Source: Candidatus Latescibacterota bacterium (GTDB taxonomy: Bacteria > Latescibacterota > UBA2968 > UBA8231). From it: a stretch of DNA of 64,000 nt. Where the stretch lies: positions 672,001-736,000 of the forward strand of contig CBDAOB010000004.1 in assembly GCA_965197905.1 (NCBI GenBank), written 5' to 3'. The first letter of the stretch is position 1, and the number at the start of each line of letters is the position of its first letter. Below the pieces are notes generated by a model that made no database searches, was not told the DNA's origin, and saw nothing but the letters and a program-made list of their open reading frames with translations. Below, one piece after another: positions 1,218 to 21,241 of this stretch. Made by a program: the position numbers and the translations under genes.

Positions 1218-2447
1218 ATGATTCTCTCCGGAGAAAACGCCAATCACACAGACAACAGACCTCAGGGCATAGTGATATCTAGAGAGGATCCGGATCAGCA
1301 CCAGATTGTTCTCAGCGGCAAGGGGTTTCGGTTTGTCCGCGGTTTTCTCGGACTGATCGTGCTTCTCGCGGTCGTACTCGTCATCTCCACTCTCGTCATG
1401 AGTTGGAAGTTCGGTATGAACGTCACTGTTGAAGGAAAAGGTGTGGTAGAACCGGTTGACCGCCTTTGGGTCAAGGCACCCCTCAACGGACTCGTTGAGC
1501 GGATCCTCGCCAGGCAGGGTCAGCTTGTTGCAGAGAACGATACCGTGGTCGTGTTGGATACCACGGAACAGCTCGCCGAGATCCGGAAGTTGCAGAATGA
1601 CTTGGAGATCAACCGGAGCCGCAGACTGGAGCTAAAGCTGGAAATCGATCAGGAGGGCAGGGTAGGTGCTGCCAATCTACGAGGCGCGCATACGGACCTG
1701 GCGCGGGCACGGATGGAACTAGCACATGTACTCGCCGAGCAAAGATTGAGCTCGAATGGCGCAGCGATGTTCGCCAGAAAACCGATGGAAGAGCTTATCC
1801 CGGTTCAGAAGAGCCAGGCTCGGCTCGATAAGGCGTTGGCTGACTTGGACCTAGCGAAGAAACGGGGTTTCGTCGATCGCCGAAATCAGGAACTCGAAAC
1901 TCTTTTCAAACTGGGCGAAAAGCTGCGTCACGAGCTCGAAACCATCGCTCGAAGGATCGAGCGGAGCACGGTAACCGCAGGAATTGCCGGAGTGGTGCTC
2001 ACCGGTGATTTGTACCGACGGGTAGGCGACCGCGTGGTGGCTGGAGAGACCATTCTGGAGATCGCCAAGCTCAACCACTGGCAGGCCGAACTTGGAATTG
2101 CCGAACACGACATTCCACGGGTTAAGCCCGGCCAACGAACGCTTCTATACGTAAACGCCTTTCCTCACCTGGAGTTCAAGATATTCGAAGGGACCGTCAG
2201 CCACGTTCCCTCGGCCCCTGGTCCGGCCGTCGCCGGAGTGTCAGAAGGGTATCCGGTGAAAATTGGCGTAAAGAACCCACACGTTACCGATGGAATTGCG
2301 AAATACCGATTAGTTCCGGGAATGCGGGTGGAAGGATCCATCGTCGTGGAGCGCGCCCGGATTCTGGGAATCTTGTGGAAGCGGCTCCTGAAAGCGAGCG
2401 GGAAGCTGGAGAAGAAGAATGAACTTCAACTGCTGGACCCAGTATGA
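1218..2447 (+). CDS. HlyD-family membrane fusion protein (type I secretion / peptide export adaptor)
   Basis: N-terminal TM helix, lipoyl half-motifs (VKAPLNGLVERI..GQLV; TAGIAGVV), long coiled coil, C-terminal LVPGMRVEGSI. Confidence 0.9.
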   Translation: MILSGENANHTDNRPQGIVISREDPDQHQIVLSGKGFRFVRGFLGLIVLLAVVLVISTLVMSWKFGMNVTVEGKGVVEPVDRLWVKAPLNGLVERILARQGQLVAENDTVVVLDTTEQLAEIRKLQNDLEINRSRRLELKLEIDQEGRVGAANLRGAHTDLARARMELAHVLAEQRLSSNGAAMFARKPMEELIPVQKSQARLDKALADLDLAKKRGFVDRRNQELETLFKLGEKLRHELETIARRIERSTVTAGIAGVVLTGDLYRRVGDRVVAGETILEIAKLNHWQAELGIAEHDIPRVKPGQRTLLYVNAFPHLEFKIFEGTVSHVPSAPGPAVAGVSEGYPVKIGVKNPHVTDGIAKYRLVPGMRVEGSIVVERARILGILWKRLLKASGKLEKKNELQLLDPV

Positions 2448-4159
2448 GCAACTTGCTTCGCATGGTGTCGTTGTTGAAGCCATACTGGCGCTACCTTGGT
2501 CAGTCACTTGTCGTCGGAATATTGATCATGATGCTGCAGCTGCCGGGACCGTACATGACCAAAATCCTCGTAGACGATGTCTATCCGCAAGGTGACGAAT
2601 CACTCCTCTGGTGTATCCTGATCCTGGGATCCGTCATGACGATGGGGCTCGGACTCACCAATCTTTTGAGCGGATACTTCGGACAGTTCGTAGGCGTTCA
2701 CATGGGACTCGATTTTCAATCACGGTTCTATCGACACATTCAGTCCCTCGATTTCGGATTCTTCGACCAGCGGGAGACCGGAGCTATCATCTCCAGATTC
2801 GACGACATGTACCAGTCGATCACAAGTGTTATTCAGATAGTCAACTCGTTCGTCATGAACCTGCTGCAGTGCCTCATTTTTCCCCCGATCCTCCTGTTGA
2901 TCAATTGGAAGTTGGCGCTGGTAAGCATTGCCGTCCTGCCTCTCGACACCATTCTCGTGGTAACCACGAGAAAATACTTCAAGAGTCTGTCGGAACGCTT
3001 GGCTCAACGGTCCGCTGAATTGAATGCGCGCCAGTATGAATCGCTCAATGGTATCCGAGCAGTACAAGCGTTGGGGTTGGAATCGAGCTTCTATGTGAAA
3101 ATGGTCCATCTATTGAGCGCGGTGACAGACCTGCAACTTCGATCGGCTCTCTTGCAGGGAGGCACGAACTTCGTTGCAACGAGCATAAGAGCAGGCGGCA
3201 CATTCGCATACGGAATCTACGGATGGACCCAGGTTCTGGAGGGCCATCTTTCGCTCGGTTCGTATCTCGCATTCTCCGGCTATGTAGGATTCTTGTACGG
3301 ACCCATCGGGAATCTCGTAGGGCTTCTCGGACGCGTCGAGGTAACCCTCGTCCACGTAAATCGGTTTCTCGAGTTGTACGACCTGCGCCCATCCATATAC
3401 GACGAGCCCAACCAGAAACGGCTGGGAAGAGTGCGTGGACAGATTTGCTTTGAGGGCGTGAGCTTCTCCTACGATGGCAGGACGATGATCTTGCAGGAGA
3501 TTGGGCTCACCGTGCCCTCCGGATCGACACTCGCCCTCGTTGGTAGAAGCGGAACGGGCAAGTCGACCCTGGCCAAACTGGTCCCACGATTCTACGATCC
3601 AACGTCCGGCACTGTTACCGTCGACGGCGAGGACGTTCGCAACGTCCGTCTGAAATATCTGAGGGAAAACGTCACCTACTCGCTGCAGGGTAACAACATT
3701 TTCCATGGAACGGTGTTGGAGAATCTGACCTTTGGGCGTCCACTGTCGGAAGCCACCGTAAAAGAGGCAGCCCGCAAAGCACACATCCACGATACCATTG
3801 CTGCGCTGCGCGATGGATACGAGAGCCACGTGGGTGAACAGGGTGTGCAGCTATCCGAGGGAGAGCGGCAGCGCCTGGTGTTGGCGAGAATCCTGTTGCT
3901 CGATTCGCCCATCGTTATCCTCGATGAACCGACCTCGGCGCTCGATATGGAATCCGAATACCTCGTTCACGAGGCGCTCGGCAATCTCAAGAGAGATCGC
4001 ACCCTGATCGTTATCGCCCACAAGATTTCGACGATTCGAAGTGCGGACGAGATCGCTGTTTTGGACGGAGGAAGAATCGTAGAGAGGGGGGATCACAGCC
4101 AGCTGGTGAAGGCAGATGGATTGTATTCTCGGATGAACCAACTATCGGCAACGTTGTAG
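2444..4159 (+). CDS. ABC exporter, fused permease + ATPase, no N-terminal C39 peptidase domain
   Basis: ABC membrane domain; Walker A GRSGTGKST, signature LSEGERQR, Walker B IVILDEPT, H-loop IAHK; ATGA overlap with adaptor gene. Confidence 0.93.
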   Translation: MSNLLRMVSLLKPYWRYLGQSLVVGILIMMLQLPGPYMTKILVDDVYPQGDESLLWCILILGSVMTMGLGLTNLLSGYFGQFVGVHMGLDFQSRFYRHIQSLDFGFFDQRETGAIISRFDDMYQSITSVIQIVNSFVMNLLQCLIFPPILLLINWKLALVSIAVLPLDTILVVTTRKYFKSLSERLAQRSAELNARQYESLNGIRAVQALGLESSFYVKMVHLLSAVTDLQLRSALLQGGTNFVATSIRAGGTFAYGIYGWTQVLEGHLSLGSYLAFSGYVGFLYGPIGNLVGLLGRVEVTLVHVNRFLELYDLRPSIYDEPNQKRLGRVRGQICFEGVSFSYDGRTMILQEIGLTVPSGSTLALVGRSGTGKSTLAKLVPRFYDPTSGTVTVDGEDVRNVRLKYLRENVTYSLQGNNIFHGTVLENLTFGRPLSEATVKEAARKAHIHDTIAALRDGYESHVGEQGVQLSEGERQRLVLARILLLDSPIVILDEPTSALDMESEYLVHEALGNLKRDRTLIVIAHKISTIRSADEIAVLDGGRIVERGDHSQLVKADGLYSRMNQLSATL

Positions 4160-4204
4160 AAAGACCTCGGGGAGCTGATCGACACCACATCAAAGGAGAG
4201 AGCA

Positions 4205-4564
4205 ATGAGAACGTTGATTAAACGAAGGCCGAAGTCTTATAGTGGAATGGACTGCAAGGTTAGTGCCTATGGATCTGAGGATGGAGGATTCTTGGGCTCG
4301 ATGAGAGCTCTGGCTGACAGCGTCTTCAGCGGTGGGACTGTGGCTACGGACACCTTCAGCGTAGGTGCCGTTAGCGCACACTACACGGTCACTTCTCCAA
4401 TCAAGATCACGCCCACGAGTGCTACCTTTTCGGGACCTCTTCCCGTAAGTGTCGGAGTAAGCATAGCTCCGTCCACGACAAGCCAAGGTCCAACTCCAGG
4501 ACCAGATAGCTCGATAAACGGGGTAGGGACCTATAGTGCAGTCGCCGACGAAACCCGGCGTTAA
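4205..4564 (+). CDS. Putative precursor peptide / secreted substrate (119 aa, Ser/Thr/Gly-rich)
   Basis: Strong SD AAAGGAG upstream; basic N-terminus MRTLIKRRPK ending in VSAY-G; 19 Ser, 14 Thr, 14 Gly; lies between exporter and proteases. Confidence 0.7.
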   Translation: MRTLIKRRPKSYSGMDCKVSAYGSEDGGFLGSMRALADSVFSGGTVATDTFSVGAVSAHYTVTSPIKITPTSATFSGPLPVSVGVSIAPSTTSQGPTPGPDSSINGVGTYSAVADETRR

Positions 4565-4702
4565 TCGAAGTAAATCTTGGCTTATTGAAGACTGATTGAA
4601 CGGTGTCGAAGCTCCTCGAGGTCGGTCTTAGGTTGTCGACAGTGACGTAAAGTGGGCGCGGCTAGACTTCTGAGAACACTCAACTGCAGCGAGAGACCGA
4701 GA

Positions 4703-5452
4703 ATGGCGAGAAGTGTGAGTTGGCCGAAAGATGTGGACATATCCTTCCTTCGTGGAATGGTACTGCTGGTGGTCTTGTTCTTCGTGCCGCACCTAGTTCT
4801 TGACGCCTCGTTCAGAATGGGATTTCCAAACAACGTGGCAACCGTCAAGCACAGTATCGAGATGGCCCTCATCTATACTGTAGTCCTCGCAGTTGTTCTA
4901 GTTACGCTGAAGCTAGTTGGCCAGATCTCCATCGTGCCCTTCTTGCAGGTGAAGACTCTACTGCCTTCGGAGTTACTCGTTTGCGTATCCTTTGCAGCCT
5001 TGTTCGGCTTCTTTCAATTTTATGCTAGCGTTCCGTACGGAAGGCTGCTTCCAGATGTAGACTACATTCTTTTCTTTTTGGCGGGGCTCCTGGTACACTC
5101 TGTGCTATGGCCTCTGATTGAAGAGGTTATTTTTCGAGGTGTCGCGTTCGTCGCGCTGTTCAACTATAGCAAGAGCCGCCTCACGGCGTACTTGGGATCG
5201 ACCTTCCTGTTTACGATCTTCCACGCGCCTTCTCTTCCGAATCTCTTCCTTCACGCAACTACGGGTCTATCGAACGCACACCTGATCCTCATCGTCTCCT
5301 TCTCGTTTTTTGCAGCCTTTATATATGAACGGACGGGGAAACTCATGCTGTGCGTGCTGGCCCACGGTGTCGTCAACGGCATGGAGTTCCTTGGTGTCAT
5401 TGTTGGTTACATAGTCGATTTTCCGCTTCCAGAGGACGGACCGGGCAACTAA
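4703..5452 (+). CDS. CPBP (CAAX protease/Abi) family intramembrane metalloprotease
   Basis: Motifs EEVIFRG, FTIFH, AHGVVN; multiple TM segments; start uncertain (GTG 4652 or ATG 4703). Confidence 0.88.
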   Translation: MARSVSWPKDVDISFLRGMVLLVVLFFVPHLVLDASFRMGFPNNVATVKHSIEMALIYTVVLAVVLVTLKLVGQISIVPFLQVKTLLPSELLVCVSFAALFGFFQFYASVPYGRLLPDVDYILFFLAGLLVHSVLWPLIEEVIFRGVAFVALFNYSKSRLTAYLGSTFLFTIFHAPSLPNLFLHATTGLSNAHLILIVSFSFFAAFIYERTGKLMLCVLAHGVVNGMEFLGVIVGYIVDFPLPEDGPGN

Positions 5453-5453
5453 G

Positions 5454-7397
5454 ATGTCGAACGCTTTTGCTGGTCTCACTGGCGCCGGCACCAGAGTCGC
5501 GGTAGTCGATAGCGGGGTCGACTTCTCCCATCCGAAAATCGATGGCGCTCCATCGGGAGTCGGACTCCGATACGACGGGGGAAGGGTCGTCGAATCCGGC
5601 AACTTCGACGACGTTGTGGGTCACGGCACCGCGTGCGCCGGAATCGTAAGGAAAAGAGCTCCCGAAACAGACCTGATATCAGTCCGAATATTCGACACTT
5701 CACTGCAAACCCACGGACACAACCTGGTTGCCGCGATACGGTGGTGTCTCGAACACCACATCGATGTCGTGAATCTAAGCCTTGGAACGACCGACCTAGA
5801 TTTCCGGGATGTCCTTTTCGATGCCTGTCAAGAGGCGTTGGACGGCAAGGTACTGATCGTCGCAGCTCACAACAATGAAGAACAGGAGAGTTTCCCAGCC
5901 GTGTTTTCGAATGTCATCGGCGTCACTGCAGGTCGATTTTCCGATTCCAAAGCATACCGCTATCGACCGTTGAACCGCGTTGAATGTGTAGCTCATGGTG
6001 ACCTGCAGCGGGTCTGCTGGTTGAACTCGCGGGAGCTGCTCGTACGGGGGACGAGCTATGCAGCCGCCCATGTTTCGGGGATCGTCGCTCTGCTTCGCCA
6101 GGCCCATCCCCACTGTGACCTGAGTCGGATTCGTGAAGTTCTGATGAGACACGCGGCTCGGAAAGACAGCACCGTTTCAGAACGGGAAGACACGTTACCC
6201 CTGCTCGACGCCAGAAGAATCGGAAAGCGGATCCATCCTGTTCGTGTAGAGCTTCAGCCCATAAAGGCTGCGCTTTACCCGTACAACAAGGAGATGCACG
6301 CTTTCGTGCGTTATCCCGAGCTGATCGATTTCGAGGTTACAGGAGTCGCCGATCCTGCCGGCAAGGGCCTCGTGGGAAAGGATGCGGGTGAGGCGATCGG
6401 TGTCGGCGCGACGGGTGTACGCATCGCATCGCGACTCATCGACGCTCTGACGGACGCAGACACCTTGATTCTGGGATATGTCGACGAGCTGGGACGCATC
6501 TCAGGACGCGACTTCCTGCGTGAATCAGTTCAGACCGCGCTAGACAACGGCCTGAACGTATTCAGCTTCGTCCCGCTCCCGTTTGAGGGTTATGAGGACC
6601 TGCACCATTCGGCGCGAATGAAAAACCTGAAAATCACCTATCCCTGGGTTGCCCCAGACGCGTTACAAACCGCCATCGAGGATCCCAACAGATATGATCG
6701 GGTCCAGATCCCTGTGCTGGCAGTATGCGGCACCGGTCCCCAACAGGGCAAATTTACAGTGCAATTGGCGCTGCGCAGATCCCTATTGAGTATGGGATTC
6801 CGGGTGGGTCAACTGGGAACCGAACATCACAGCGAGCTCTTCGGTTTTGATGCGGCGTTTCCCATGGGTTATGCCTCTCCCCTGGCGATGCCGGTACAAC
6901 TTTTTGTGCCCTTTCTCGATTTCACAATGCGGGAGATCGCGCACGTCGGTAAACCTGATATCCTCATTGCCGGCTCGCAATCCGGCACGATACCGTATGA
7001 TATCGGTCTTCCGGACACACATACCCTGGCATCCATCGCTTTTCTTTTCGGTGTCAAACCGGATGGCTGCGTGCTTGTTGTGAACTCCATCGACTCTTAC
7101 GCCTATATACGCGACACCATAGCCGCCATTAAGGCCTTGGCCAAGGTCCCAACCGTGCTGCTGGCCATGAGCGACAAGGAGAAGAATGTTCAGAGCGCGT
7201 ACGGTCGCACGTGGATAAAACCCCGACAGTTGAGTAGGACAGAGATTTCGGATCGCCTGCGAAATTTGGAGGATAGCTTCTCGCTACCTGCTTTTGAGAT
7301 ATCGGATGGACACAGCCAACGCAGCATGACAGATGCGATAGTAAAGTACTTCACAGAAAGCGGTCCTGAGGATCCATGTCTGACAGCAGCGGCCTAA
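5454..7397 (+). CDS. S8 (subtilisin-like) serine peptidase fused to DUF1611-like Rossmann + P-loop domain
   Basis: Triad motifs VAVVDSG, GHGTACAG, GTSYAAAHVSG; no signal peptide; C-terminal half has GKDAGE and P-loop-like CGTGPQQGKFT. Confidence 0.8.
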   Translation: MSNAFAGLTGAGTRVAVVDSGVDFSHPKIDGAPSGVGLRYDGGRVVESGNFDDVVGHGTACAGIVRKRAPETDLISVRIFDTSLQTHGHNLVAAIRWCLEHHIDVVNLSLGTTDLDFRDVLFDACQEALDGKVLIVAAHNNEEQESFPAVFSNVIGVTAGRFSDSKAYRYRPLNRVECVAHGDLQRVCWLNSRELLVRGTSYAAAHVSGIVALLRQAHPHCDLSRIREVLMRHAARKDSTVSEREDTLPLLDARRIGKRIHPVRVELQPIKAALYPYNKEMHAFVRYPELIDFEVTGVADPAGKGLVGKDAGEAIGVGATGVRIASRLIDALTDADTLILGYVDELGRISGRDFLRESVQTALDNGLNVFSFVPLPFEGYEDLHHSARMKNLKITYPWVAPDALQTAIEDPNRYDRVQIPVLAVCGTGPQQGKFTVQLALRRSLLSMGFRVGQLGTEHHSELFGFDAAFPMGYASPLAMPVQLFVPFLDFTMREIAHVGKPDILIAGSQSGTIPYDIGLPDTHTLASIAFLFGVKPDGCVLVVNSIDSYAYIRDTIAAIKALAKVPTVLLAMSDKEKNVQSAYGRTWIKPRQLSRTEISDRLRNLEDSFSLPAFEISDGHSQRSMTDAIVKYFTESGPEDPCLTAAA

Positions 7398-7690
7398 CAC
7401 TTCGAGTAAAGACGACCATTGTAGTAGCTCTAAAACTCGAAATCGAGCCGGATCAGATAGCGGACGACGAGATCCTTTTTGAAGCGGGATTGGGGGTGGA
7501 CTCCGTCGCCATGATGGAACTCATCGTCGCCCTTGAAAACGAATTCGAGGTAGAATTCAGTGATGAGCTGATACGTATCGAGAACTTCGAATCCGTAGAT
7601 TCGATCGTTAAGTTGCTTGTTCCACTTTTGGAAGATTCCAGGATGGAGAAGGAGCCATGTTCCGCTCAAACCCAAAACGAGAATTTCTAA
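7376..7690 (+). CDS. Stand-alone acyl carrier protein
   Basis: Acidic, GLGVDSVAMMELIVALENEF phosphopantetheine motif. Confidence 0.88.
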   Translation: MSDSSGLTLRVKTTIVVALKLEIEPDQIADDEILFEAGLGVDSVAMMELIVALENEFEVEFSDELIRIENFESVDSIVKLLVPLLEDSRMEKEPCSAQTQNENF

Positions 7691-10380
7691 ATATTGAGTT
7701 GATGACAGACCCGGCGGCCAGAGATTGCCTCGAAGACATCCTGGCGTCTGTGATTTCCTGGTGGGGGCGTCGGTACGAACTGATGTTTGCGTCATCCTGG
7801 AGTTTCGATTTCAAACCGGGCCCAGGCGAGTTGGTGGGCCCCCGCCTTGATGCGGAGATATCCCCTGCCCTGGATCTGTTGGAGACTCACCATGGTATAA
7901 GAGTATCATTTGGAACGAGGCCGGTCGGGACCGACCTGTTTGCACTCGTTTTGAAGGAGATCCGCGGCGGACGTCCTGTCCTTCTCAGCCGAAGCCACCG
8001 CTCCGTGGCTGATCCTGGCTCAATCCCGCAGTTCGTCCTAGTCCTTGGATTTGACTATCTCCGCCAGGTCCTGTTCTATCGAGCCGCGGATGTGCGGGGC
8101 GCAACTACCCGGCAGGAAGGTTCCGTGCATGCCTTGCCACACAAAGAGCTGGGAGATTGGTCCGGTCCACACGCCACCTTTTCTGTCGGTGGCAACGGTG
8201 CAGCCACCTTGGATTGGCGACAGATTCTGCGGGATGCTGCTTTGCGGTTTCACGATCGCGATGGATCCGAGCACCGCTTCGTGATGATGGCGTCGTTTGC
8301 TCGGGAGATCGGCAGCATGGACATCAAAGCCGAGATACATGGGCATCAGAATCGGTATTGGGTGCCGCTTTTCTATAACCTCCGTCGAATTTCCCAGGGC
8401 CGTATTCAATTTGCATCGCTACTAAGGTTTCTCGAAGCACGATTCGATCTGCGGGAGATATCGGAAATATTGAGCGACTTCCAGAATGCGGGTCGCTCAT
8501 GGCAACTGGTTCGCAGTCTGATGATTAAATACTCACTGACTGTCGACGATCGTGCCTTGCTGAATCGAATCTCCACGCGAATTCTCGATATTGCAACAAC
8601 CGAGCAACAGCTAGCCGAAAAACTCATCCTGCTTGTCGACCGCGATAGATCCCGCGTAAGGAGCGATACGGCAAAACCGCCCGCACGTGATGAGCAGGAG
8701 ATGCGCACTGTTTCATCCATTCCCCGCCAGGAGGAAGGTTATGTCGCACCTCGATCGGCAATCGAGATATGCCTCGTGAGGATTTGGGAGCACGTGCTGG
8801 GGATGGAGAAAGTGGGTATTCTGGATAACTTTTTTGAGCTTGGGGGCGACTCACTGCTCGGCTTGAAGATCCTTGCCCAAATGCACAGAGCTGGATTGGA
8901 GATTGACGCTGGACAGATATACCAGCGTCAAACCATCAAGGAATTGGCAGCCGTGACCGGGATGAATACCTGCAGTGATACCGCTCAAGACCCCGAGACC
9001 GGTTCGATGCCCTTTCTTCCTCTACAGTACAAAGGCATTTCGGAGGATGGTCCCAACTACGGACTTGAAGGCGCTGTCAAATTCTACGCTCCGACGGTTC
9101 ACCATCTGACATCCGATCAGCTTGATCAGGTTGCCAATCGGCTGATGGCTCATCACGACGCTCTTCGGCTTCGATTCCCCCGTAATTTCGAGGACCGGCG
9201 CCCGACATTCTGTGAAACCTCGAGCGACTCTAGATGTTGGCAGTGGATCGACCTATCCGACGACCATCATTTGGACAGATCGGACATCCTGGACAGCGCT
9301 CCGGAGAAGGCGCGTTCTGTCATCGATCTGCACACCGGTCCTCTATTCGTGCTGCTGTATTTAAAAACGCCGTCGCACATGAAAAATGTTCTATGCATGT
9401 GCATCCATCACGTCGTTTCCGACGCCATCTCCAATGGAATTCTGGAAGAAGACATTCTGTCCCTTGCAGGTCAGGCAGCGGGGCACAGGAAGTTTCGTTT
9501 ACCTCGCAAGACGACCTCGATTAAGCAATGGTCCCACATGTTGTCCAACTACGCGCGATCTCCCGATACAAGAGAGGTCGACTATTGGAAGTGCAGACCA
9601 TGGGGCAAGATTCGCCCGATCCTGCCGGATCGCTGCGATGAGTCGTCAGTCGATCTTGGGAAGCTAATCACGGCCGATTTGACCGTGGGCGAGCGGATGA
9701 CCCGATCGCTTTTCAGCACCTGCCGGACGCTGAGCATTACCATTCACGAACTCTTGATAACCGGCCTGGCCAGAACCCTCGCCGGCTGGAGCGGATCGGA
9801 TGTGGTTCTCATAGAGCACATACATCACGGCAGAGATCCCGTTTTCGAAGGCACGGATTTGTCGCGAACCGTCGGTTTCTTTTCGCTCGAGGTTCCCGTG
9901 GTCCTGGAGTTGCCCGCGGCCAGCGGTCCCGAGGCCTTGCTCCAGGCAGTTTCCTCACAGATCCGCAACCTGCCGGCAAAAGGCATTGGCTACAGCCTGC
10001 TTCGTTACCTTTCGAAAGAGGAAGATATCGTCCGGTTCCTTGAGTCTATTCCTACCTATCAGGCGCGGTACAACGCCGTGATCGAACCCCATCTGGGCGA
10101 TCAAACGGCGGCTTGCGAAACCGATGGAAGCTGGGACGTCGAGTACTACGAAACTTCGATCTCGCCAGCCCGAATCGGTGCGACGTCATTCACCCTGGAA
10201 AACAAGCCGAGAATGGAGAAGAGGTGTCTCGTTCTGCCTCTCAGATTCGGACAAAAAGGACTCTTCTACAAGGAGACCGTGGCAAGAGTGGTCGACTCCT
10301 ACACGGACTGTCTGGAAAGATTCGCGGGACTTGGCCATGGTTTTCAATCCATGAAACCACGACTCAGAGAATGTGCGTGA
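7657..10380 (+). CDS. NRPS-like protein: BtrH-like N-terminal region + PCP + epimerisation-type condensation domain (no A domain)
   Basis: N-terminal DCLED..W.F..GRPV..LVLGFD plus helical tail resembling BtrH; PCP FFELGGDSL (Ser 8851-8853); HHVVSDAIS, LPRKTTS, HHGRD, DLSRTVGFF, PAKGIGYSLLRY. Confidence 0.75.
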   Translation: MFRSNPKREFLNIELMTDPAARDCLEDILASVISWWGRRYELMFASSWSFDFKPGPGELVGPRLDAEISPALDLLETHHGIRVSFGTRPVGTDLFALVLKEIRGGRPVLLSRSHRSVADPGSIPQFVLVLGFDYLRQVLFYRAADVRGATTRQEGSVHALPHKELGDWSGPHATFSVGGNGAATLDWRQILRDAALRFHDRDGSEHRFVMMASFAREIGSMDIKAEIHGHQNRYWVPLFYNLRRISQGRIQFASLLRFLEARFDLREISEILSDFQNAGRSWQLVRSLMIKYSLTVDDRALLNRISTRILDIATTEQQLAEKLILLVDRDRSRVRSDTAKPPARDEQEMRTVSSIPRQEEGYVAPRSAIEICLVRIWEHVLGMEKVGILDNFFELGGDSLLGLKILAQMHRAGLEIDAGQIYQRQTIKELAAVTGMNTCSDTAQDPETGSMPFLPLQYKGISEDGPNYGLEGAVKFYAPTVHHLTSDQLDQVANRLMAHHDALRLRFPRNFEDRRPTFCETSSDSRCWQWIDLSDDHHLDRSDILDSAPEKARSVIDLHTGPLFVLLYLKTPSHMKNVLCMCIHHVVSDAISNGILEEDILSLAGQAAGHRKFRLPRKTTSIKQWSHMLSNYARSPDTREVDYWKCRPWGKIRPILPDRCDESSVDLGKLITADLTVGERMTRSLFSTCRTLSITIHELLITGLARTLAGWSGSDVVLIEHIHHGRDPVFEGTDLSRTVGFFSLEVPVVLELPAASGPEALLQAVSSQIRNLPAKGIGYSLLRYLSKEEDIVRFLESIPTYQARYNAVIEPHLGDQTAACETDGSWDVEYYETSISPARIGATSFTLENKPRMEKRCLVLPLRFGQKGLFYKETVARVVDSYTDCLERFAGLGHGFQSMKPRLRECA

Positions 10381-10392
10381 TCTTGCCGCCGC

Positions 10393-11247
10393 TCAGTCGA
10401 GGTTGGGGAGCGTCGGATTTATGGGTCTCACAGCCCTGTGATCAACCCGTACCGGGTCGGCCATCGCCTTGAACTCCTTGCAGAATGCCACCAGGTGTCC
10501 TGCGGCGGCATCCAGCATGGCCTTGCCTTTCTCGGCGGTAGCCAGGGTTGGCGCGCCGGATACCCCGTTCGGGGTACTGCTGCTGGTCCACTTGATCATT
10601 TTGATCGGACCCCAGCCTTTGGCCAGGTCCACATAGAGGTACTTGGACCCGTCTTCACCAGCAGCCCCACCGTAGTGATCCTCCGCTTTATCCATCTGCA
10701 CACGCTCCGGCGCAATGTGCAAGTATACCGAGGTCTCGAGTTCGCAAGCGTGCGCTGCGCCGCCCATCCCCGAATCGCGAACGGCTTCGAACTCCTCGGC
10801 AACCAGGTTGGTCCACATGGTGGAAGCGACCATCGCCTCGGTCTCCAGGGTGGCGCGGCGGGCGATGAACTCACACAGATGTTCGTTCGAGCCGTGGCCG
10901 TCGACGATCATGATCCGCCTGAAGCCGGCGTAAGCGACGCTCTTGCAGACATCGAGGCAGTATTCGATGAAATGCTCGTAGGTGACGTGTACGGTGCCGG
11001 GAAAGTCCTGGCCATGCTCGTTGTAGCCGTACGGAATATTCGGCATGACGAGAAGGTTCCTTGGGTCGCGGCGTGCAGCTTCGAGCGAAACCTCGGTCGC
11101 CAGCAGGTTGTCGGTGTCTAGAGGCAGATGATGGCCGTGTTGTTCGGTGCTGCCTATGGGCAGCAGGATCACCTTCTCGGCCTCAGTGGCTTCATTGATC
11201 TCGGGCCAGGTGAGATGTTCGTAGTGGATTTTGTTTAGTGCGCTCAT
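10393..11247 (-). CDS. Creatininase / creatinine amidohydrolase family protein
   Basis: LPIGSTEQHGHHLPLDTD, DGHGSN, HACELETS motifs; start taken at MSALN. Confidence 0.9.
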   Translation of the reverse strand: MSALNKIHYEHLTWPEINEATEAEKVILLPIGSTEQHGHHLPLDTDNLLATEVSLEAARRDPRNLLVMPNIPYGYNEHGQDFPGTVHVTYEHFIEYCLDVCKSVAYAGFRRIMIVDGHGSNEHLCEFIARRATLETEAMVASTMWTNLVAEEFEAVRDSGMGGAAHACELETSVYLHIAPERVQMDKAEDHYGGAAGEDGSKYLYVDLAKGWGPIKMIKWTSSSTPNGVSGAPTLATAEKGKAMLDAAAGHLVAFCKEFKAMADPVRVDHRAVRPINPTLPNLD

Positions 11248-11315
11248 AGTGAGACAACACCGTCGTCCAAGAATGTCGCAGTGATGTATTTCAAACAATC
11301 GGGGAAATCAGCAGG

Positions 11316-12287
11316 CTATTCCTCCCAGACACCCATCTTCGAATACTTCTCGACCCGCTGCCGCACAAGCTCGTTCGCGGAGATCGGACGCAGCTCGGCA
11401 AGCGCCTCCTGGATGAGACGCTTCACGTTGCCGGCAGCCTCGTCGTAGTTGCGGTGGGCGCCACCGAACGGCTCGGGCACGATCCGGTCTATGATGCCCT
11501 GGTCCTTCAGGTCGGGAGCAGTCAGTTTCAGCGCATCCGCCGCTTCTTCTTTGCGGTCCCGTGTCTTAAACAGGATCGTGGAGCAGCCCTCGGGGGCGAT
11601 GACACAGTACCAGGAATTCTCCATCATTAGGATGCGGTCACCGACGGCCATTCCCAATGCCCCGCCACTGGCCCCCTGACCGATGATCGCCACGATGATC
11701 GGCACCGGCAGGTGGGACATCTCGAAGAGGTTCCGCGCGATCGCTTCTGCCTGACCGCGTTCTTCCGCTTCGATCCCGGGGTAGGCACCCGAGGTATCTA
11801 TCAAGTTGATGAGGGGGCGTTTGAACTTCGCCGCCATCTGCATCAGACGTAACGCTTTGCGGTAGCCTTCGGGATGCGGCATGCCGAAATTTCGAAACTG
11901 CCGCTCCTCGGCGGTGCGACCGCCCTGCATGCCGATGACCATCACCGGTTCTCCCTCGAGGCGCGCCGGACCGCCTACCACGGCGTGGTCGTCGCCGAAC
12001 GCCCGGTCGCCGTGGAGCTCGGTGAAGTCGGTGAAGATTCGTTCCATATAGTCGAGGCTGTACGGCCGCTGCGGATGCCGCGAGATCTGCACCCGTTGCC
12101 AGGGGGAAAGATCGGTGTAGACCTCCTGGCGCATGTGCTCGACCTTCTCTTCCAGGCCCTTCATCTCCGCGCTCAGGTCGAGCCCGTCCACCTTTGACGT
12201 CTGCTTTTGGATGTCGGCGATCTTCTCTTCCAGCTCGACGATCGGCCGCTCGAAATCCAGGTAAAATGCGTCGTTGTTTTCGCTCAT
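11316..12287 (-). CDS. accA: Acetyl-CoA carboxylase carboxyltransferase alpha subunit
   Basis: LDFERPI, RHPQRP, ELHGDR, FGMPHPEGYRKA, EERGQAEAIA. Confidence 0.97.
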   Translation of the reverse strand: MSENNDAFYLDFERPIVELEEKIADIQKQTSKVDGLDLSAEMKGLEEKVEHMRQEVYTDLSPWQRVQISRHPQRPYSLDYMERIFTDFTELHGDRAFGDDHAVVGGPARLEGEPVMVIGMQGGRTAEERQFRNFGMPHPEGYRKALRLMQMAAKFKRPLINLIDTSGAYPGIEAEERGQAEAIARNLFEMSHLPVPIIVAIIGQGASGGALGMAVGDRILMMENSWYCVIAPEGCSTILFKTRDRKEEAADALKLTAPDLKDQGIIDRIVPEPFGGAHRNYDEAAGNVKRLIQEALAELRPISANELVRQRVEKYSKMGVWEE

Positions 12288-12352
12288 AACTCGGTCTCGG
12301 GTGTTTTACTGCCTGATCTTATATATAGACACCGGATCCTGAATCCTGTTCG

Positions 12353-13570
12353 CTAACTAAGGCGCCCCAGTGCCTCAGCCATGCGATCCATGCCTTCCGC
12401 CAAGATTTCCATGGAGGTAGCGTAGGAGATGCGGATATGTTCCCGAGTGCCGAAGCCGGCGCCGGGGACGCAGGCAATGCGCCCCTCCTCCAGCAGATAC
12501 TCGCACAGGCTCATGGAGTCACCCACCTTCCAATCACCGCAGGAGCGACCGAAATGACCGGAAAGATCGGGATACACGTAGAAAGCGCCCGCAGGCGTCG
12601 GGCAGTCGACGTCAGGCATATCATTCAAACGCCCCACGACGAACCTCCTGCGTTCGTCGAACGCCTGCAGCATTTCGGCGAGGAAGTCCTGCGGACCGTT
12701 GAGAGCTTCCACCGCGGCCCGTTGGGTGATAGATGAGATCTGCGTCAGCTCCTGACTTTGCACCTTGTTCATCCCGGCAATGATCGGCGCCGCCGCGGCT
12801 GCATACCCTACCCGCCAGCCGGTCATGGCGTGGGATTTGGACAACCCGTTCACCACGATGGTCAGATCTTTCATGTCGTTACTGATGGAGGCGATGGAGT
12901 GATGCTCGGCGCCGTCGTAGACCATCTTCTCGTAGATCTCGTCGCTGATAACGTAGATAACGTGTTCCACCAGTACCGCAGCCAGCGCGGCCAGCTCCTC
13001 TCGGGTATAGACCGCACCGGATGGATTGGATGGAGTACAAAGAAAAAGCAGCTTGGTATTGGGAGTGATCGCCTTGCGCAGTTCCTCGGGCGTCAGCTTC
13101 AGACCATTTTCCGCGTCGGTTTCCACCACCTTGGGAATCGCGCCCACGACTTTGGGCTGCTCGAGGTAACTCACCCAGTATGGAGTTGGAACGATGACCT
13201 CGTCGTCCGGGTTGAGCATGCTCAACAGCGCCACAAAGATCGTGTTCTTTGCCCCGTTGTTGACCGTGATCTGCTGTGGCGCGTAGTCCAGCTCGTTGTC
13301 CTCCTTGAGCTTGCGCGCGATCGCCTCTTTCAGGGGCAGGATCCCCGATCCGGGGGAATCGTATTTGGTGAACCCTTCCTCGATGGCCCGAATCCCCGCC
13401 GCTTTGATGTTGGCCGGCGTATCGAAATCCGGCTCCCCCGCCGCCAGCGCTATCAAATCGATTCCCTCCCGCTTCATCGCCGCCGCGCGAGCGGAGATCG
13501 ACATGGTGATCGATTCCTGCATCTGCTGCACGTTGCGAGACTGGGGAAGGCGGCTTGATCGAACAGTCAT
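12353..13570 (-). CDS. aspC: Aspartate aminotransferase (class I/II PLP)
   Basis: GEPDFDTP, PSNPSG, SDEIYE, SKSHAMTGWRVGY. Confidence 0.9.
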   Translation of the reverse strand: MTVRSSRLPQSRNVQQMQESITMSISARAAAMKREGIDLIALAAGEPDFDTPANIKAAGIRAIEEGFTKYDSPGSGILPLKEAIARKLKEDNELDYAPQQITVNNGAKNTIFVALLSMLNPDDEVIVPTPYWVSYLEQPKVVGAIPKVVETDAENGLKLTPEELRKAITPNTKLLFLCTPSNPSGAVYTREELAALAAVLVEHVIYVISDEIYEKMVYDGAEHHSIASISNDMKDLTIVVNGLSKSHAMTGWRVGYAAAAAPIIAGMNKVQSQELTQISSITQRAAVEALNGPQDFLAEMLQAFDERRRFVVGRLNDMPDVDCPTPAGAFYVYPDLSGHFGRSCGDWKVGDSMSLCEYLLEEGRIACVPGAGFGTREHIRISYATSMEILAEGMDRMAEALGRLS

Positions 13571-14772
13571 GTGGTGTACTCAGCGTTGATGCGCACGTAG
13601 TCGTAGCTGAAATCGCAGGTGTAGATCTCCGCTTCACTCGCGCCGCGACCCAACTCAATTTCGATCGGGATGTCCGATTCTCCCATCGCTTCGATCAGTG
13701 CCTCCTTGTCGAACTCGATGCCGGCGCCGGCGCCGTAGATCGGCACACCGCACAGGTCCACCCGCACCCGATCGGGGTCGATCTCCACCCCGGAGTACCC
13801 AACCGCACATAGAATGCGGCCCCAGTTTGGATCGCGACCGAATACTGCCGTTTTCACCAGGTTTGAATTGGCCACCGCCAGACCCACCTGACGCGCCTCT
13901 ATCTCACTTTTAGCCTGGCGCACTCCGATGGTGACCAATTTGGTGGCCCCCTCACCGTCGCGGGCGACAGCACGGGCAAGCTGCCGACAAACGGTCTCGA
14001 ACGCCCCGGTGAACTGCTCCAACTCGGAGGCATTGGCCGCGGCAACCTCGACCCGGCTGGCTCCGTTAGCCATGGCGATCAGCGTATCGTTGGTGCTCAT
14101 ATCTCCGTCCACGGTGATGCCGTTGAAGGAACGGTTCACCGCGCCCACCAGCAACTTCTGGAGAAGCCCGGAATCGATCGCCGCGTCGGTGTTCACCAGT
14201 GCAATCATGGTAGCCATGTTAGGAGCGATCATGCCGGCCCCTTTGGACATGCCCCCGATGCGCACCGGTTTGCCGCTAAGCTCCAGTTCGACGGCGCAGT
14301 GTTTGGGCACCGTGTCGGTAGTCATGATCGCTTCCGCCGCATCGACGCCGCCGGATTCCGAGAGTGTCTCGGCCACTTTGGGAATGCCCGTTGCAATCGC
14401 CGACATTGGCAGCGGCACTCCGATAACGCCGGTGGAGCAGACCAGAACCTGCTCGGGCTCGATACCGAGAGCTGACGCGGTGTCGGCGCACATCGCCTCG
14501 GCATCCTCGCGACCTCGATCGCCGGTACAGGCGTTGGCATTTCCGCTGTTCACGATCAACGCCTGGGCACGGCCGTCATTAAGGTGATGCCGGTCGACGG
14601 CGATCGGCGCCGCCTGCACCCGGTTGGTGGTATAGACCGCGGCGGCCTGGGTTTCGGACGGCGAATAGACCAGGGCCAGATCCTTCACGCCGTTGTCCTT
14701 TATGCCGGCGTGGATGCCCGCGGCTTTGTACCCGGCGGGTGAGGTCACGCTGCCATCTGTTAGCTCTTTCAT
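13567..14772 (-). CDS. argJ: Bifunctional ornithine acetyltransferase / N-acetylglutamate synthase
   Basis: NSGNANA, IMTTDT, KGAGMIAPNMATM, DGDMSTND, DGEGATK, DPNWGR. Confidence 0.97.
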   Translation of the reverse strand: MKELTDGSVTSPAGYKAAGIHAGIKDNGVKDLALVYSPSETQAAAVYTTNRVQAAPIAVDRHHLNDGRAQALIVNSGNANACTGDRGREDAEAMCADTASALGIEPEQVLVCSTGVIGVPLPMSAIATGIPKVAETLSESGGVDAAEAIMTTDTVPKHCAVELELSGKPVRIGGMSKGAGMIAPNMATMIALVNTDAAIDSGLLQKLLVGAVNRSFNGITVDGDMSTNDTLIAMANGASRVEVAAANASELEQFTGAFETVCRQLARAVARDGEGATKLVTIGVRQAKSEIEARQVGLAVANSNLVKTAVFGRDPNWGRILCAVGYSGVEIDPDRVRVDLCGVPIYGAGAGIEFDKEALIEAMGESDIPIEIELGRGASEAEIYTCDFSYDYVRINAEYTT

Positions 14773-14782
14773 CGTCTTTTCG

Positions 14783-16381
14783 TCAGGATACTTGCTTCTG
14801 GTGGAGCGCCTCCACCTGTGCCGCATCCCGCATCAGTTTGTAGTGCAGACTGTCTGTCAGGGCGATCCAGCTGGCTTCGATGATATTCTCGGACACCCCC
14901 ACGGTTCCCCAGACCTCGCGGCCGTCGGAAGATTCGATTAGCACCCGCACACGGGCAGCGGTTCCATCGGTGCCGGAAAGCACCCGTACCTTGTAGTCCT
15001 CCAGGTGCACTTGGCGAATGCTTGGAAACTCCTGTTCCAGTGCCTTGCGCAACGCCCGGTCGAGAGCGTTTACCGGCCCTTCCCCTTCGCCGACGGTGTG
15101 GTAGACCCGGTCGCCGACCGCCACCTTTACGATCGCCTCCGAAGCATCCTCGCCGGAGCCGTTCCGATTGATGGTGCGAAAGCTCACCAGCTCGAACAAG
15201 TTCTGGTAGCTTCCCATGGTTCTTCGGGCCAGAAGTTCGAAGGAACCCTCCGCCGCTTCGAACTGGTATCCTTGATTCTCCAGACGTTTCACCGCCCCCA
15301 GGATCTCTACTACCATCGGATCCTTCTTGTTCAACCCTGGGAAGACCCGGTCCAGCTTGGTAACCACAGTGCTGCTGCCCGACTGGTCCGACACGAGAAA
15401 GCGCCGTTCGTTGCCCACCAGCTCGGGGTCGCAATGCTCATAGCAGCGCGGATGTTTGGTCATCGCGTCTATGTGCACGCCTCCCTTGTGGGCGAACGCA
15501 CTTTCCCCGACAAACGGCTGCCGGTGATCGTGATAGACGTTGGCGATCTCGCTCAGGAAGCGGGAGAAGCCCATCAGCTCGGCCAGATGTTCGTCGCCGA
15601 TGGTGGTGCGATTCAGCTTCAACTCCAGGTTGGGGATCACTGTGCACAGATTGGCGTTGCCACATCGTTCTCCCAGTCCGTTGAAGGTCCCTTGGACCTG
15701 TAGCGCTCCCAGCTCCACTGCAGCTATGGTGTGTGCTACCGCCATGCCGGCATCGTTGTGGGTGTGAATGCCGAACGGAATTTCGATCTGCTCGATGGTA
15801 GCGGCGATGATGGCGGAGAGCTCCGAAGGCAGGGTTCCGCCGTTGGTTTCGCACAAAACGAGGATCCGGGCCCCGCCCCTTTGCGCCGCTTTGAGGGTCT
15901 CAATGGCGTACGCCGCGTCGTCTTTATAACCGTCGAAGAAGTGCTCGGCGTCGTACACCACCTCGCGACCGTTGCCGGTCAGAAATCCGACCGAATCCTC
16001 GATCAGATTGAGGTTCTCCTCCCGGGTAGTCCTGAGCGCAGCCTCCACGTGCAGCGTCCAGCTCTTGCCGAACAGGCAGACGGTATCGGTTTCGACCTGG
16101 AGCAGGGTGTTGAGGGTTGCATCCTCTTCGGGGGGCGTGATTGCTCTCCTGGTGCTGCCGAAAGCGGTTACCCGAGCACTCAATCCGAGCTTCTTAACAT
16201 CGCGAAAGAAAGCCAGATCCTTAGGATTGGTCGGATTGGGCCAACCCCCTTCGATGTAATGAACGCCCAGCGCGTCCAACCGGCGGGCGATCAGCAGCTT
16301 GTCCTCACCGGTGAATGCTATGCCTTCCGCCTGGGCACCATCGCGCAGGGTCGAGTCGTAAACTTCTACAAATCCATCCAT
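14783..16381 (-). CDS. cimA: Citramalate synthase
   Basis: DSTLRDGAQ, IEGGWP, YDAEHFFDG, AFAHKGGVH, YQFEAAEGSF, WGTVGVSENII. Confidence 0.93.
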   Translation of the reverse strand: MDGFVEVYDSTLRDGAQAEGIAFTGEDKLLIARRLDALGVHYIEGGWPNPTNPKDLAFFRDVKKLGLSARVTAFGSTRRAITPPEEDATLNTLLQVETDTVCLFGKSWTLHVEAALRTTREENLNLIEDSVGFLTGNGREVVYDAEHFFDGYKDDAAYAIETLKAAQRGGARILVLCETNGGTLPSELSAIIAATIEQIEIPFGIHTHNDAGMAVAHTIAAVELGALQVQGTFNGLGERCGNANLCTVIPNLELKLNRTTIGDEHLAELMGFSRFLSEIANVYHDHRQPFVGESAFAHKGGVHIDAMTKHPRCYEHCDPELVGNERRFLVSDQSGSSTVVTKLDRVFPGLNKKDPMVVEILGAVKRLENQGYQFEAAEGSFELLARRTMGSYQNLFELVSFRTINRNGSGEDASEAIVKVAVGDRVYHTVGEGEGPVNALDRALRKALEQEFPSIRQVHLEDYKVRVLSGTDGTAARVRVLIESSDGREVWGTVGVSENIIEASWIALTDSLHYKLMRDAAQVEALHQKQVS

Positions 16382-16396
16382 GATAACCCGCTGATC

Positions 16397-17455
16397 TCAG
16401 GCGTCTGCGACAGCTTGTGCCACCAGATCGCCCACTTCCGCGGTAGAGTATCCCATCCGTCCAGCGCCCATATCTTTCAGTTTCCCGAGCACCTGGACGA
16501 TCGCATTCTCCATTAAAACTGCCGCCTCGGTCTGGCCCAGGGTATCCAGCATCAGCTGGGCGGCCGCGATCGCCGCCATCGGATTTATCACGCTTTGCCC
16601 GGTGTATTTGGGCGCCGAACCGCCAATCGGCTCGAACATGGATACGCCTTCGGGATTGATATTGCCGCCGGCAGCGATGCCCATGCCGCCTTGAATCATG
16701 GCGCCGAGATCGGTGATGATGTCGCCGAAGATGTTATCGGTGACGATGACGTCGAACCACTCCGGGTTTTTCACCATCCACATACAGATCGCGTCCACGT
16801 GGGCGTAGTCCCGTTTGATATCGGCGTAGTCAGCCTCGCCCACCTCATTGAAGGTGCGCTCCCACAAATCGAAAGCGAAGGTGAGCACGTTGGTCTTGCC
16901 GCACAGGGTCAAAGTCTTGTCCCGATTGCGCCGACGGCAGAAGTCGTAGGCGTAGCGCACACAGCGCTCCACTCCTTTGCGGGTGTTGATCGACTCCTGA
17001 ACCGCGATCTCATCCGGCGTGCCCTTCTTGTGAAAACCGCCGGCACCGGTATAAATGCCTTCCGTGTTCTCGCGCACTACCACGAAATCGATCTCTTCCG
17101 GTCCCTTATCCGCCAGGGGCGTTGGAACGTTCGGGTAGAGTTTGACCGGACGCAGGTTGATGTACTGGTCGAGCTCGAAGCGCAAGTGCAGAAGAATGCC
17201 TTTTTCAAGGATGCCCGGCTTGACGTCGGGATGCCCGATCGCTCCCAGAAGAATGGTGTCGAACTGCCGCAGATCGCCGACGGCGGATTCGGGCAGCACC
17301 TCGTTGGTGCGCAGATACCGATCGCCACCGAAATCGAACTCCTCTGTCTCGTACTTGAATCCCGTCTTTTCCGCCGCGACAGCGAGAACCTTGAGTGCCT
17401 CGGCGATAACCTCGGGGCCGGTGCCGTCACCCGGCAATACCGCGATCTTAGTCAA
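16397..17455 (-). CDS. leuB: 3-isopropylmalate dehydrogenase
   Basis: [32 protein letters not shown]; leu operon context. Confidence 0.95.
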
Positions 17456-17493
17456 TCTTTCCTCCTCAATAATGTCGCGCCTGCAGGCGCTGT

Positions 17494-18090
17494 TTATTTA
17501 AAAGCTGTAACGTAGGGCAGTTTGGCGGCCGCATCGTCGATGGCGACACCGGCCTCGAGCAATTGACCCAGGGCATCCCAGGTTCCGCTCAGCAGCTGCT
17601 CCCGGGGCCCATCAGGAATCGTCCCTCGGACCTGGCCGCCTTTGAACGCGATGGTTTGACCGGCAAGGTCGATGGCGACCTCCTGCTGGGGATCCTCATC
17701 GATCGAATCCATGAGCGCCGACACGTCCGCGCCGCTGGCGGTCAAGCAGGGCAATCCAAGGGCGAGACAATTGCCGAAGAAGATCTCGGCGAACGATTCC
17801 GCCACGAATGCGTTTATGCCCCAGCGCATCAAGGCCTGCGGCGCATGCTCTCGCGAAGAGCCGCAACCGAAATTCTGATTGGCCACCAGAATCGATGACC
17901 CCTGGAAGCGCTCCTGGTCGAACGGGTGATCTCCCTGGGACCGTTCGTCCTCGAAGGCGTGGGGGCCGAGGTGTTCGAAGGTCACCGTGCGCAGAAAGCG
18001 CCCCGGGATGATCCGGTCGGTGTCGATGTCGGCGCCGCGTACGACTATCGCCTGTCCTTCTATCTGAGTTCTCTTGCTGTCTGTTGTCAT
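17494..18090 (-). CDS. leuD: 3-isopropylmalate dehydratase small subunit
   Basis: IDTDRIIP, NFGCGSSREHAP, FAEIFFGN. Confidence 0.96.
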   Translation of the reverse strand: MTTDSKRTQIEGQAIVVRGADIDTDRIIPGRFLRTVTFEHLGPHAFEDERSQGDHPFDQERFQGSSILVANQNFGCGSSREHAPQALMRWGINAFVAESFAEIFFGNCLALGLPCLTASGADVSALMDSIDEDPQQEVAIDLAGQTIAFKGGQVRGTIPDGPREQLLSGTWDALGQLLEAGVAIDDAAAKLPYVTAFK

Positions 18091-18118
18091 CGTTCCTCTA
18101 CAGTTAACGTTTCGTTGA

Positions 18119-19522: not shown

Positions 19523-19523
19523 T

Positions 19524-21071: not shown

Positions 21072-21208
21072 TTTGGTTTTCTCTCTGGGAAAGGCCGGAC
21101 TTCCGAGATCACTTGCAGATGGAACGGTCCGGCATGCTGCTCCATCTGCCGGCTAAGTTCGAGTTCGATCGACTCGGACGCCTCGTTAAGGGCGGGTTCC
21201 ATCTGCAT
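21068..21208 (-). CDS. Unannotated 46-aa small ORF translationally coupled to leuA
   Basis: SD GGAAGGGGG then [46 protein letters not shown]; its TGA overlaps the leuA ATG (ATGA). Confidence 0.45.
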   Translation of the reverse strand: MQMEPALNEASESIELELSRQMEQHAGPFHLQVISEVRPFPERKPK

Positions 21209-21241
21209 CACCCCCTTCCGGGATTGGTATTTAGTGCCCTG

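Follow-up and report, generated by a model that had tools for sequence, protein, structure and literature searches.

Described systems and organization of the locus

The closest described system is the CLI_3235/CcpM cassette, which includes PapA/PapB and SacP23. According to the accessible parts of PMC10731318 and PMC4573289, it combines a TIGR04065 precursor with a TIGR04068 radical SAM enzyme, TIGR04066 and TIGR04069 proteins, a subtilase and an ABC exporter. The literature found lists TIGR04066 and the ACP-like TIGR04069 alongside peptide precursors; it gives their names but contains no test of them. Other systems share single parts with the locus analysed here. QhpE, a signal-less S8 protease, removes the leader from a polypeptide of about 100 residues before export (QhpC, the quinohemoprotein amine dehydrogenase gamma subunit). 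DgcN is a DUF1611 N-acetyltransferase acting on D-glutamate, and the activation of HlyA by HlyC is linked to acyl-ACP. BtrH, CtaG and AsbE are papain-like carrier-protein acyltransferases; CtaG and BtrH require a Cys-His-Asp triad (PMC12865890, accessible part). No description of BtrH, CtaG or AsbE acting on a ribosomal substrate was found in the literature. Selidamides are fatty-acylated RiPPs (PMC10849128, accessible part) which, unlike the system presented here, use NHLP leaders and GNATs. The accessible part of PMC13381572 concerns another RiPP family.

The window, by which we mean the whole stretch of 64,000 nucleotides analysed, stems from a Candidatus Latescibacterota bacterium (contig CBDAOB010000004.1). 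It contains a plus-strand operon in the order HlyD, ABC (without C39), P0001, CPBP, S8/DUF1611, ACP and BtrH-fold/PCP/E-type protein, with the following features.

1218..2447, plus strand: HlyD-family membrane fusion protein (family match)
2444..4159, plus strand: ABC exporter, permease and ATPase without C39 peptidase domain, long-cargo ABC clade
4193..4198, plus strand: Shine-Dalgarno sequence AAGGAG, ATG 6 nt further on
4205..4564, plus strand: P0001, precursor/cargo of 119 aa (ATG at 4205, TAA at 4562-4564)
4205..4270, plus strand: leader of 22 aa, basic, pI 10.2, with L4-x-K6 anchor and V19-x-A21-Y22 as putative P4-P1
4271..4561, plus strand: predicted mature protein, 97 aa, 9.5 kDa, pI 4.6
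4277..4279, plus strand: Glu25, the +3 residue of the Y-x-x-E motif, kept in 34 of 55 locus-derived precursors
4526..4561, plus strand: C-terminal motif of the G-T-Y-S-A-x-x-D-x-T-R type, found in some relatives
4652..5452, plus strand: CPBP (Rce1-like/Abi) intramembrane protease, PF02517, candidate immunity or processing partner
5454..7397, plus strand: signal-less S8 protease (D19, H57, N141, S201) fused to a DUF1611/TIGR04066-like, DgcN-related domain
7376..7690, plus strand: acyl carrier protein (ACP), D-S motif, Ser43
7657..10380, plus strand: 907-aa protein with BtrH/CtaG fold, PCP (Ser399) and epimerisation-type C-family domain; the start codon at 7657 is GTG in sequencing runs X3 and X5

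With the CLI_3235/CcpM cassette the locus shares a leader ending in I/V-x-A-Y and, in kind, a TIGR04066-like domain, an ACP, an S8 protease and an ABC exporter, although TIGR04066 (131–132 bits, cut-off 200) and TIGR04069 (18 bits, cut-off 70) score under their cut-offs. Unlike that cassette it has no radical SAM enzyme, its S8 protease is fused to the TIGR04066-like domain, and HlyD, CPBP, the BtrH-fold-PCP-E fusion and a Glu+3 motif are added. The cargo of 119 aa, with a Cys-free core of 97 aa, contrasts with the Cys-rich precursors of 45–60 aa in CLI_3235/CcpM. The best NCBIfam model for the S8 domain is QhpE (146 bits, under the cut-off of 165), but QhpC is a thioether-crosslinked enzyme cargo and its system contains neither ACP nor DUF1611. 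The N-domain of the 907-aa protein has the BtrH/CtaG/AsbE fold and likewise occurs beside carrier proteins, but lacks the triad His and Asp. To DgcN there is very distant, profile-level homology of DUF1611 domains (best E 9e-8); unlike DgcN, the domain in the window is fused to a protease. Export of a protein of about 10 kDa by ABC and HlyD would be analogous to microcin V-type and RTX type I secretion, though the window system has no C39, double-glycine leader, RTX repeats or HlyC. A description of a radical-SAM-free long-cargo variant was not found in the literature; subscription papers and bioRxiv supplements were outside the search and could bear on novelty.

By tblastn, the operon's parts are single-copy in the genome, the S8 domain and the ABC excepted. 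Outside the operon the genome has a PPTase, TolC-type proteins and 12 AMP-binding matches; the operon itself has no adenylation domain, acyl-ligase or other loading enzyme. No C39 domain was found in the ABC protein or in the genome (91% complete). Radical SAM proteins are absent from operon and window, with 24 matches elsewhere in the genome. Upstream of HlyD, a minus-strand ORF of 243 aa (396-1127) without family match is present in the same-genus locus too. Downstream, a housekeeping run on the minus strand (10393-22234; creatininase-like, AccA, aminotransferase, ArgJ and Leu/Ilv genes, named from translations only) has GC3 values, where measured, of 0.72–0.80 versus 0.52–0.66 in the cluster, a contrast consistent with an acquired island.

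The gene for P0001

ORF 4205-4564 has the properties on which the original prediction was built. Its Shine-Dalgarno sequence is strong, and past the upstream stop the earliest start is ATG 4205. The 119 residues include 33 Ser and Thr (19 and 14), 14 Gly, a single Cys (C17) and GG at positions 27–28 and 43–44. A Sec h-region is indeed missing, as Kyte-Doolittle means over 19 residues stay below zero across the first ~30 residues. Comparison with Pfam and NCBIfam gave no family match for P0001; the match to an ordinary structural protein family, named in advance as evidence to the contrary, did not appear. A Pfam scan of 32 members of the P0001 family yielded none with E <0.016, and the ESM Atlas returned no usable match for P0001.

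Four full-length homologues with 71–98% identity were found (among 16 candidates). The same-genus copy differs by 23 synonymous and 8 non-synonymous substitutions (pN/pS 0.12; neighbouring ABC 0.13, CPBP 0.17), and the pN/pS of 0.07 for the core represents strong purifying selection. A core-plus-leader profile matches in 12 of the 168 genomes of the phylum. Cys17 varies even in close homologues, Gly23 is Thr in the close homologue P0005, and GG27–28 is seen solely in the nearest homologues. As judged from sequence, ORF 4205-4564 is a real gene.

Contigs from sequencing runs agree with the window DNA. One contig each from runs X1 and X3 departs from it at 4503, inside the Pro-rich tail of the cargo, possibly representing a relative with a different C-terminus. 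Promoter and terminator scans stayed at chance level, and the spacer 4560-4700 folds no better than shuffles (z +1.2). In a metagenome scan with a close P0001 alignment, none of 83 pattern matches was confirmed.

A common leader at S8-DUF1611 loci

S8-DUF1611 proteins occur in 87 of the 168 Latescibacterota genomes, with at most 7 matches per genome. For the main counts, 59 of 138 S8-DUF1611 matches were fetched together with their loci, the choice favouring large contigs and, for the most part, high scores; the locus of one distant precursor homologue was added. A search for leader pattern plus Shine-Dalgarno sequence gave 60 matches. Five were dropped (two on the minus strand, one overlapping frame, one duplicate start and one duplicate from overlapping loci), and the 55 kept include P0001. 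The pattern was composed with P0001 in view and limits the letters at P4, P2 and P1; residues after the Tyr are unrestricted. Leader ORFs were thus found in 42 of 59 loci, and a position-specific matrix adds 5 loci. A recognisable precursor within 20 kb is absent from 12 loci of the 59 (the L044 copy being counted under L042), and eight further flanking stretches (L143-L150) contained no convincing precursor. The leader is 19–22 aa long in 54 of the 55 precursors, with the consensus M..L-x-K..(5-14)..V/I-x-A-Y/Q/C. The conserved basic leader ending in V/I-x-A-Y that had been expected among small ORFs beside S8-DUF1611 homologues is therefore present.

With a first profile HMM from 16 leader seeds, P0001 scored 7.8 bits, within noise. 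The training set of the two-anchor matrix comprised 48 leaders, none from the window or from its genus. This matrix places P0001 (25.4) first of 84,763 candidate ATG ORFs in the genome; the runners-up reach 12.6 (best other of 8,752 ORFs with Shine-Dalgarno sequence) and 14.2 (best of 76,011 other ATG ORFs). Applied to two Bacillus plasmid clusters, the same matrix finds both precursors of each (20.4 and 18.9); elsewhere it finds a 137-aa Bacteroidetes precursor (18.5) and, ranked top in its locus, the CLI_3235 precursor that NCBI annotates on a Clostridium plasmid (13.8). A leader HMM matches in 43 of the 168 phylum genomes, 41 of them among the 87 S8-DUF1611-positive ones; this tally is partly circular, the HMM having been built from S8-positive genomes with the window included, and kin are not independent. 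Of the two S8-DUF1611-negative genomes with a match, G145 has ACP and BtrH-fold genes beside the precursors, and in G003 the match lies near a contig end. P0001 very probably is a cargo whose leader identifies it as a substrate of an S8-DUF1611/ACP cluster.

The original prediction had likened the leader to those of CLI_3235-type precursors. The relation holds for the leader, which in the fetched CLI_3235 precursor ends in IEAY; it does not extend to family membership, given the Cys-free core and the missing radical SAM enzyme. The proposed scoring with the TIGR04065 HMM (cut-off 26 bits) gave no match on P0001 and none in the genome at E 10, at 31 bits for the positive control L134 and 13.2 bits for the best of 55 Latescibacterota N-termini. 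The leader of P0001 is thus related to the CLI_3235/PapA type, yet P0001 lies outside the CLI_3235 family.

Several clusters outside the phylum were noted in passing. On a Clostridium plasmid (L135:10220-11487), three identical precursor genes of 67 aa alternate with ACP-like genes; this leader has a different ending and scores weakly with TIGR04065 (7 bits). The Bacillus plasmid clusters (L133:3813-9061 and L136:8527-13780) encode an ABC, an ACP, two near-identical 44-aa precursors and S8-DUF1611, followed by a DUF692 (MNIO-type) enzyme with its partner and a c3-type BtrH-fold protein. They are candidates for a new RiPP whose leader is of the P0001 type. A Bacteroidetes locus (L117:2507-11210) has ABC, HlyD, a Cys-rich leader-bearing cargo of 137 aa, a radical SAM match, S8-DUF1611 and ACP, and by its predicted gene content bridges the long-cargo and radical-SAM types.

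The predicted cleavage site

The S8 enzyme probably cuts P0001 after Tyr22. Its triad is intact (D19/H57/S201, with N141), and the N-terminus begins directly in the catalytic domain. The series hydrophobic-x-small-aromatic suits the P4-P1 preference of subtilisin. A predicted complex of S8-DUF1611 with P0001 residues 1–42 scored 0.52 versus 0.01 for the best control, which is weak support: 116 of 157 solved complexes pass the mark, as do 2 of 215 mismatches, and at scores up to 0.60 there are just 18 solved complexes plus both mismatches. The runs share at least 75% of contacts with a partner pLDDT of at least 52, and no interface is given; solved subtilisin–peptide complexes may account for the pass.

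An N-terminal Gly suited to N-acylation, as first proposed, is not a feature of the family: Gly follows the Tyr in just 4 of 55 precursors and in 8 of 31 core-family members. Among the 55, Ser (17), Glu (10) and His (8) are found there more often, and Asp equally (4). A required N-terminal Gly was rejected on this variability of position +1. Conservation lies at Glu+3 instead, which is the majority residue in 16 of 24 core clusters versus a background of 5%, in a tally whose profile-search members are biased towards Glu+3; it is absent from the other 8 clusters. The Bacillus and Bacteroidetes precursors have this Glu too, whereas that of CLI_3235 lacks it. On these alignments the recognition motif is better given as V-x-A-Y-x-x-E.

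Other candidates were discarded. Cleavage at the GG sites is ruled against by the absence of C39 from ABC and genome, and of the hallmarks of double-glycine-leader bacteriocins (a C39 peptidase-ABC and a conserved GG leader) the P0001 locus has neither. A role for Cys17 disagrees with its lack of conservation among homologues, and export by Sec, Tat or as a lipoprotein with the missing hydrophobic h-region and the unconserved RR and Cys17.

Cargo classes and exporters

Predicted mature P0001 consists of an amphipathic helix, a beta-rich segment with conserved SGG..TDT..SP and a Pro/Ser-rich linker. The beta-strand character claimed at the outset is compatible with two AlphaFold2 models but not proven by them: both are of low confidence (mean pLDDT 51 and 50), with a helix at about 28–41 and strands from 45 to 75, in one model also at 81–87. 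A loose pattern for the C-terminal motif matches 12 of 79 precursors, and this motif might serve in export or as a follower signal.

Searching 1.84 billion representatives with a profile gave 33 proteins at E ≤0.001. With these included, the P0001 core family has about 31 members of 108–141 aa, which have in common a helix, SGG..TDT..SP and further strands. Clustering of 79 precursors resulted in nine unrelated long-core clusters, of which the P0001 family is one; of the 32 proteins that the profile search gave besides P0002, ten were left out (fragments, long repeats, wrong starts), as was P0139, a pattern miss. For the distant relatives P0126-P0157, gene context was seen where they coincide with fetched loci. 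Neither the ESM Atlas nor Pfam, run on 32 family members, revealed a homologue linking the P0001 core to toxins.

Cargo length and exporter type go together. All 21 precursors in HlyD loci have 110–158 aa and 0–4 Cys, whereas outside HlyD loci 30 of 34 are short (43–84 aa) and mostly Cys-rich. In all 24 loci with an ABC at least 41% identical the cargo is long, and in all 15 with one at 27–31% it is short; ten loci without a full-length ABC match were unscored. This split may reflect one evolutionary event. The gene 3' of the cargo differs by core type. Of 31 long cargoes, 14 are followed by CPBP and the others by TPR+CPBP, TPR-C39 or small Zn-ribbon membrane proteins. Genomes G032 and G144 contain HlyD/ABC–cargo–CPBP cassettes alone, with S8 and ACP encoded elsewhere in the genome, which suggests maturation in trans.

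Some long cargoes (L018:6113-6493, oriented; P0142; L154:9340-9747; P0151) have a CxxCH, haem-binding-like motif soon after the leader. In L025, L029, L030, L034, L038, L045, L046, L050 and L052-L056, short Cys-rich cargoes are interleaved with genes for 6-bladed beta-propellers; these loci adjoin redoxin, MauE, rhodanese or glycosyltransferase (GT2, GT28) genes, and some of their leaders end in Q, not Y.

DUF1611, carrier and BtrH-fold proteins

The DUF1611 domain is related to PDB 2g0t (E 1e-7). The DgcN N-acetyltransferase model is matched by 11 of 23 DUF1611 domains, the window's own domain giving no match at E 0.1. All 36 clustered ACPs keep the Ser. BtrH-fold proteins were found in 42 of 61 loci and fall into three subtypes: c11 (10), with Cys and His; c3 (28), without Cys and also present in the Bacillus clusters; and the fusion (4). 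The ACPs of L004-L063 have the motif N-S in 17 of 17 c3 loci and D-S in 6 of 6 c11 loci, a covariation in which kin are not independent; in fusion loci D-S occurs twice and H-S once.

All four fusions keep Cys24 and lack the triad His and Asp, with Gln or Pro at the His site (Gln125 in the window, from the alignment). The window's domain was accordingly rejected as a canonical ping-pong acyltransferase, in which the full Cys-His-Asp triad would be expected. In the C-family domain HHxxxD is kept, and the best PDB matches are E domains. The Glu of the EGHGRE motif, which has a role in epimerisation domains, is replaced by Ile or Met in all four fusions (Ile in the window), a departure from NRPS epimerisation domains; the domain could therefore be a condensation catalyst, or inactive. 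In genome G097 (L163:13215-15950) a fusion of 911 aa stands alone, without leader ORF or S8 within 20 kb, and this weakens the tie of the fusion to the cargo. A family-less protein of ~207 aa (cluster c17; L051:10876-11511 and relatives) lies between ACP and triad-intact BtrH-fold gene in 8 loci.

A model for the cluster and its alternatives

The best overall explanation, which we hold with some reserve, is that P0001 is a leader-bearing cargo which is cut, possibly capped, and exported as a bacteriocin-like protein. Ribosomally made P0001 would very likely enter the pathway by the family leader of S8-DUF1611/ACP substrates. The cytoplasmic subtilisin domain would probably take V-x-A-Y as P4-P1 and, cutting after Tyr22, expose G-S-E. 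Tentatively, and with chances slightly short of even, the DgcN-like DUF1611 domain, the dedicated ACP and the PCP/E-type module would then acylate or aminoacylate the new N-terminus or Glu+3, the first residue being almost unrestricted. The 97-aa beta-rich product would quite probably leave through the C39-less ABC, HlyD and a TolC-type channel encoded elsewhere. It might finally act as an effector of the bacteriocin-like or contact type. P0001 would then be one among several unrelated, 'polymorphic' cores behind a single leader, and the CPBP next to it would be the cognate enzyme for protection or finishing; this step is about as open to doubt as to belief, with doubt slightly ahead.

The alternatives concern different parts of this model. 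That P0001 is spurious, or an ordinary structural protein unconnected to the adjacent enzymes, is extremely improbable: the missing family match, a low Atlas recognition value and a GC3 of 0.52, lower than in the neighbouring genes, point that way, but homologues under purifying selection, the first rank of the leader score and the constant position after the ABC do not fit. The cut might also lie elsewhere, after Glu25 with the whole V-x-A-Y-x-x-E recognised or after Gly44 in double-glycine fashion, possibly made by CPBP. The conservation of Glu+3 equals that of parts of the leader, and SGG 42–44, which follows the amphipathic helix, is kept in the closest core family; SGG is, however, absent from other cargo families with the same leader, C39 is lacking from the ABC and from the 91% complete genome, and the subtilisin P4-P1 preference agrees with Tyr22. 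The PapA leader/core junction, at Y17-G18 in the accessible part of PMC12373016, also argues against a different site, which we consider improbable.

More weight attaches to export of the cut cargo without any acyl cap, DUF1611, ACP and BtrH-fold protein serving as scaffold, leader reader, protease regulator or for another substrate. This is a plausible minority view, in keeping with the free +1 residue, with broken triads in c3 (28 loci, Cys absent) and the four fusions (no His/Asp), and with the N-S motif in place of D-S in every c3 locus scored. Against it speak the invariant ACP Ser, the D-S motif in the ACPs of all 6 scored loci with triad-intact c11, the relation of DUF1611 to an N-acetyltransferase and the second carrier of the window, its Ser intact. 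The exported protein may instead be a signal, a host-interaction factor or a self-assembling (adhesin/amyloid-like) protein, not an antagonist, which seems rather unlikely. A Ser/Thr/Gly-rich, acidic, beta-prone core under strong purifying selection (pN/pS 0.07), for which toxin homology was not found in the ESM Atlas or by Pfam on 32 family members, would suit such a role. Against it, a single leader precedes interchangeable, unrelated cores, several of them hydrophobic and rich in Gly/Ala; every core has a small membrane or TPR gene of its own on the downstream side, and one genome has up to 7 S8-DUF1611 matches. Such an arrangement is typical of toxin-immunity loci.

The preferred model, of a cargo that is cut, possibly capped and exported, can be extended to a RiPP-type machine repurposed as a polymorphic protein-secretion system, though we doubt this more than we believe it. 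The leader with Y-x-x-E would steer unrelated proteins of 90–140 aa to S8-DUF1611 for cleavage and ACP-dependent capping at the new N-terminus or Glu+3; an NRPS-derived PCP/E-type module would replace the dead BtrH in the window's cluster, a C39-less type I system would do the exporting, and the orphan cargo/CPBP cassettes would be served in trans. If true, it would mean a new protein-modification chemistry and the action of NRPS domains on a ribosomal protein.

The radical-SAM-free locus reduces the system to protease/DUF1611, ACP and exporter, with a defined substrate and a predicted cut site, and makes the function of TIGR04066- and TIGR04069-type proteins directly testable. The leader, which apparently can carry unrelated, protein-sized cargoes, may be useful as a portable tag for processing and secretion. 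S8-DUF1611 was matched in 87 of 168 genomes, an indication that this uncultured phylum has a large set of secreted proteins not yet annotated.
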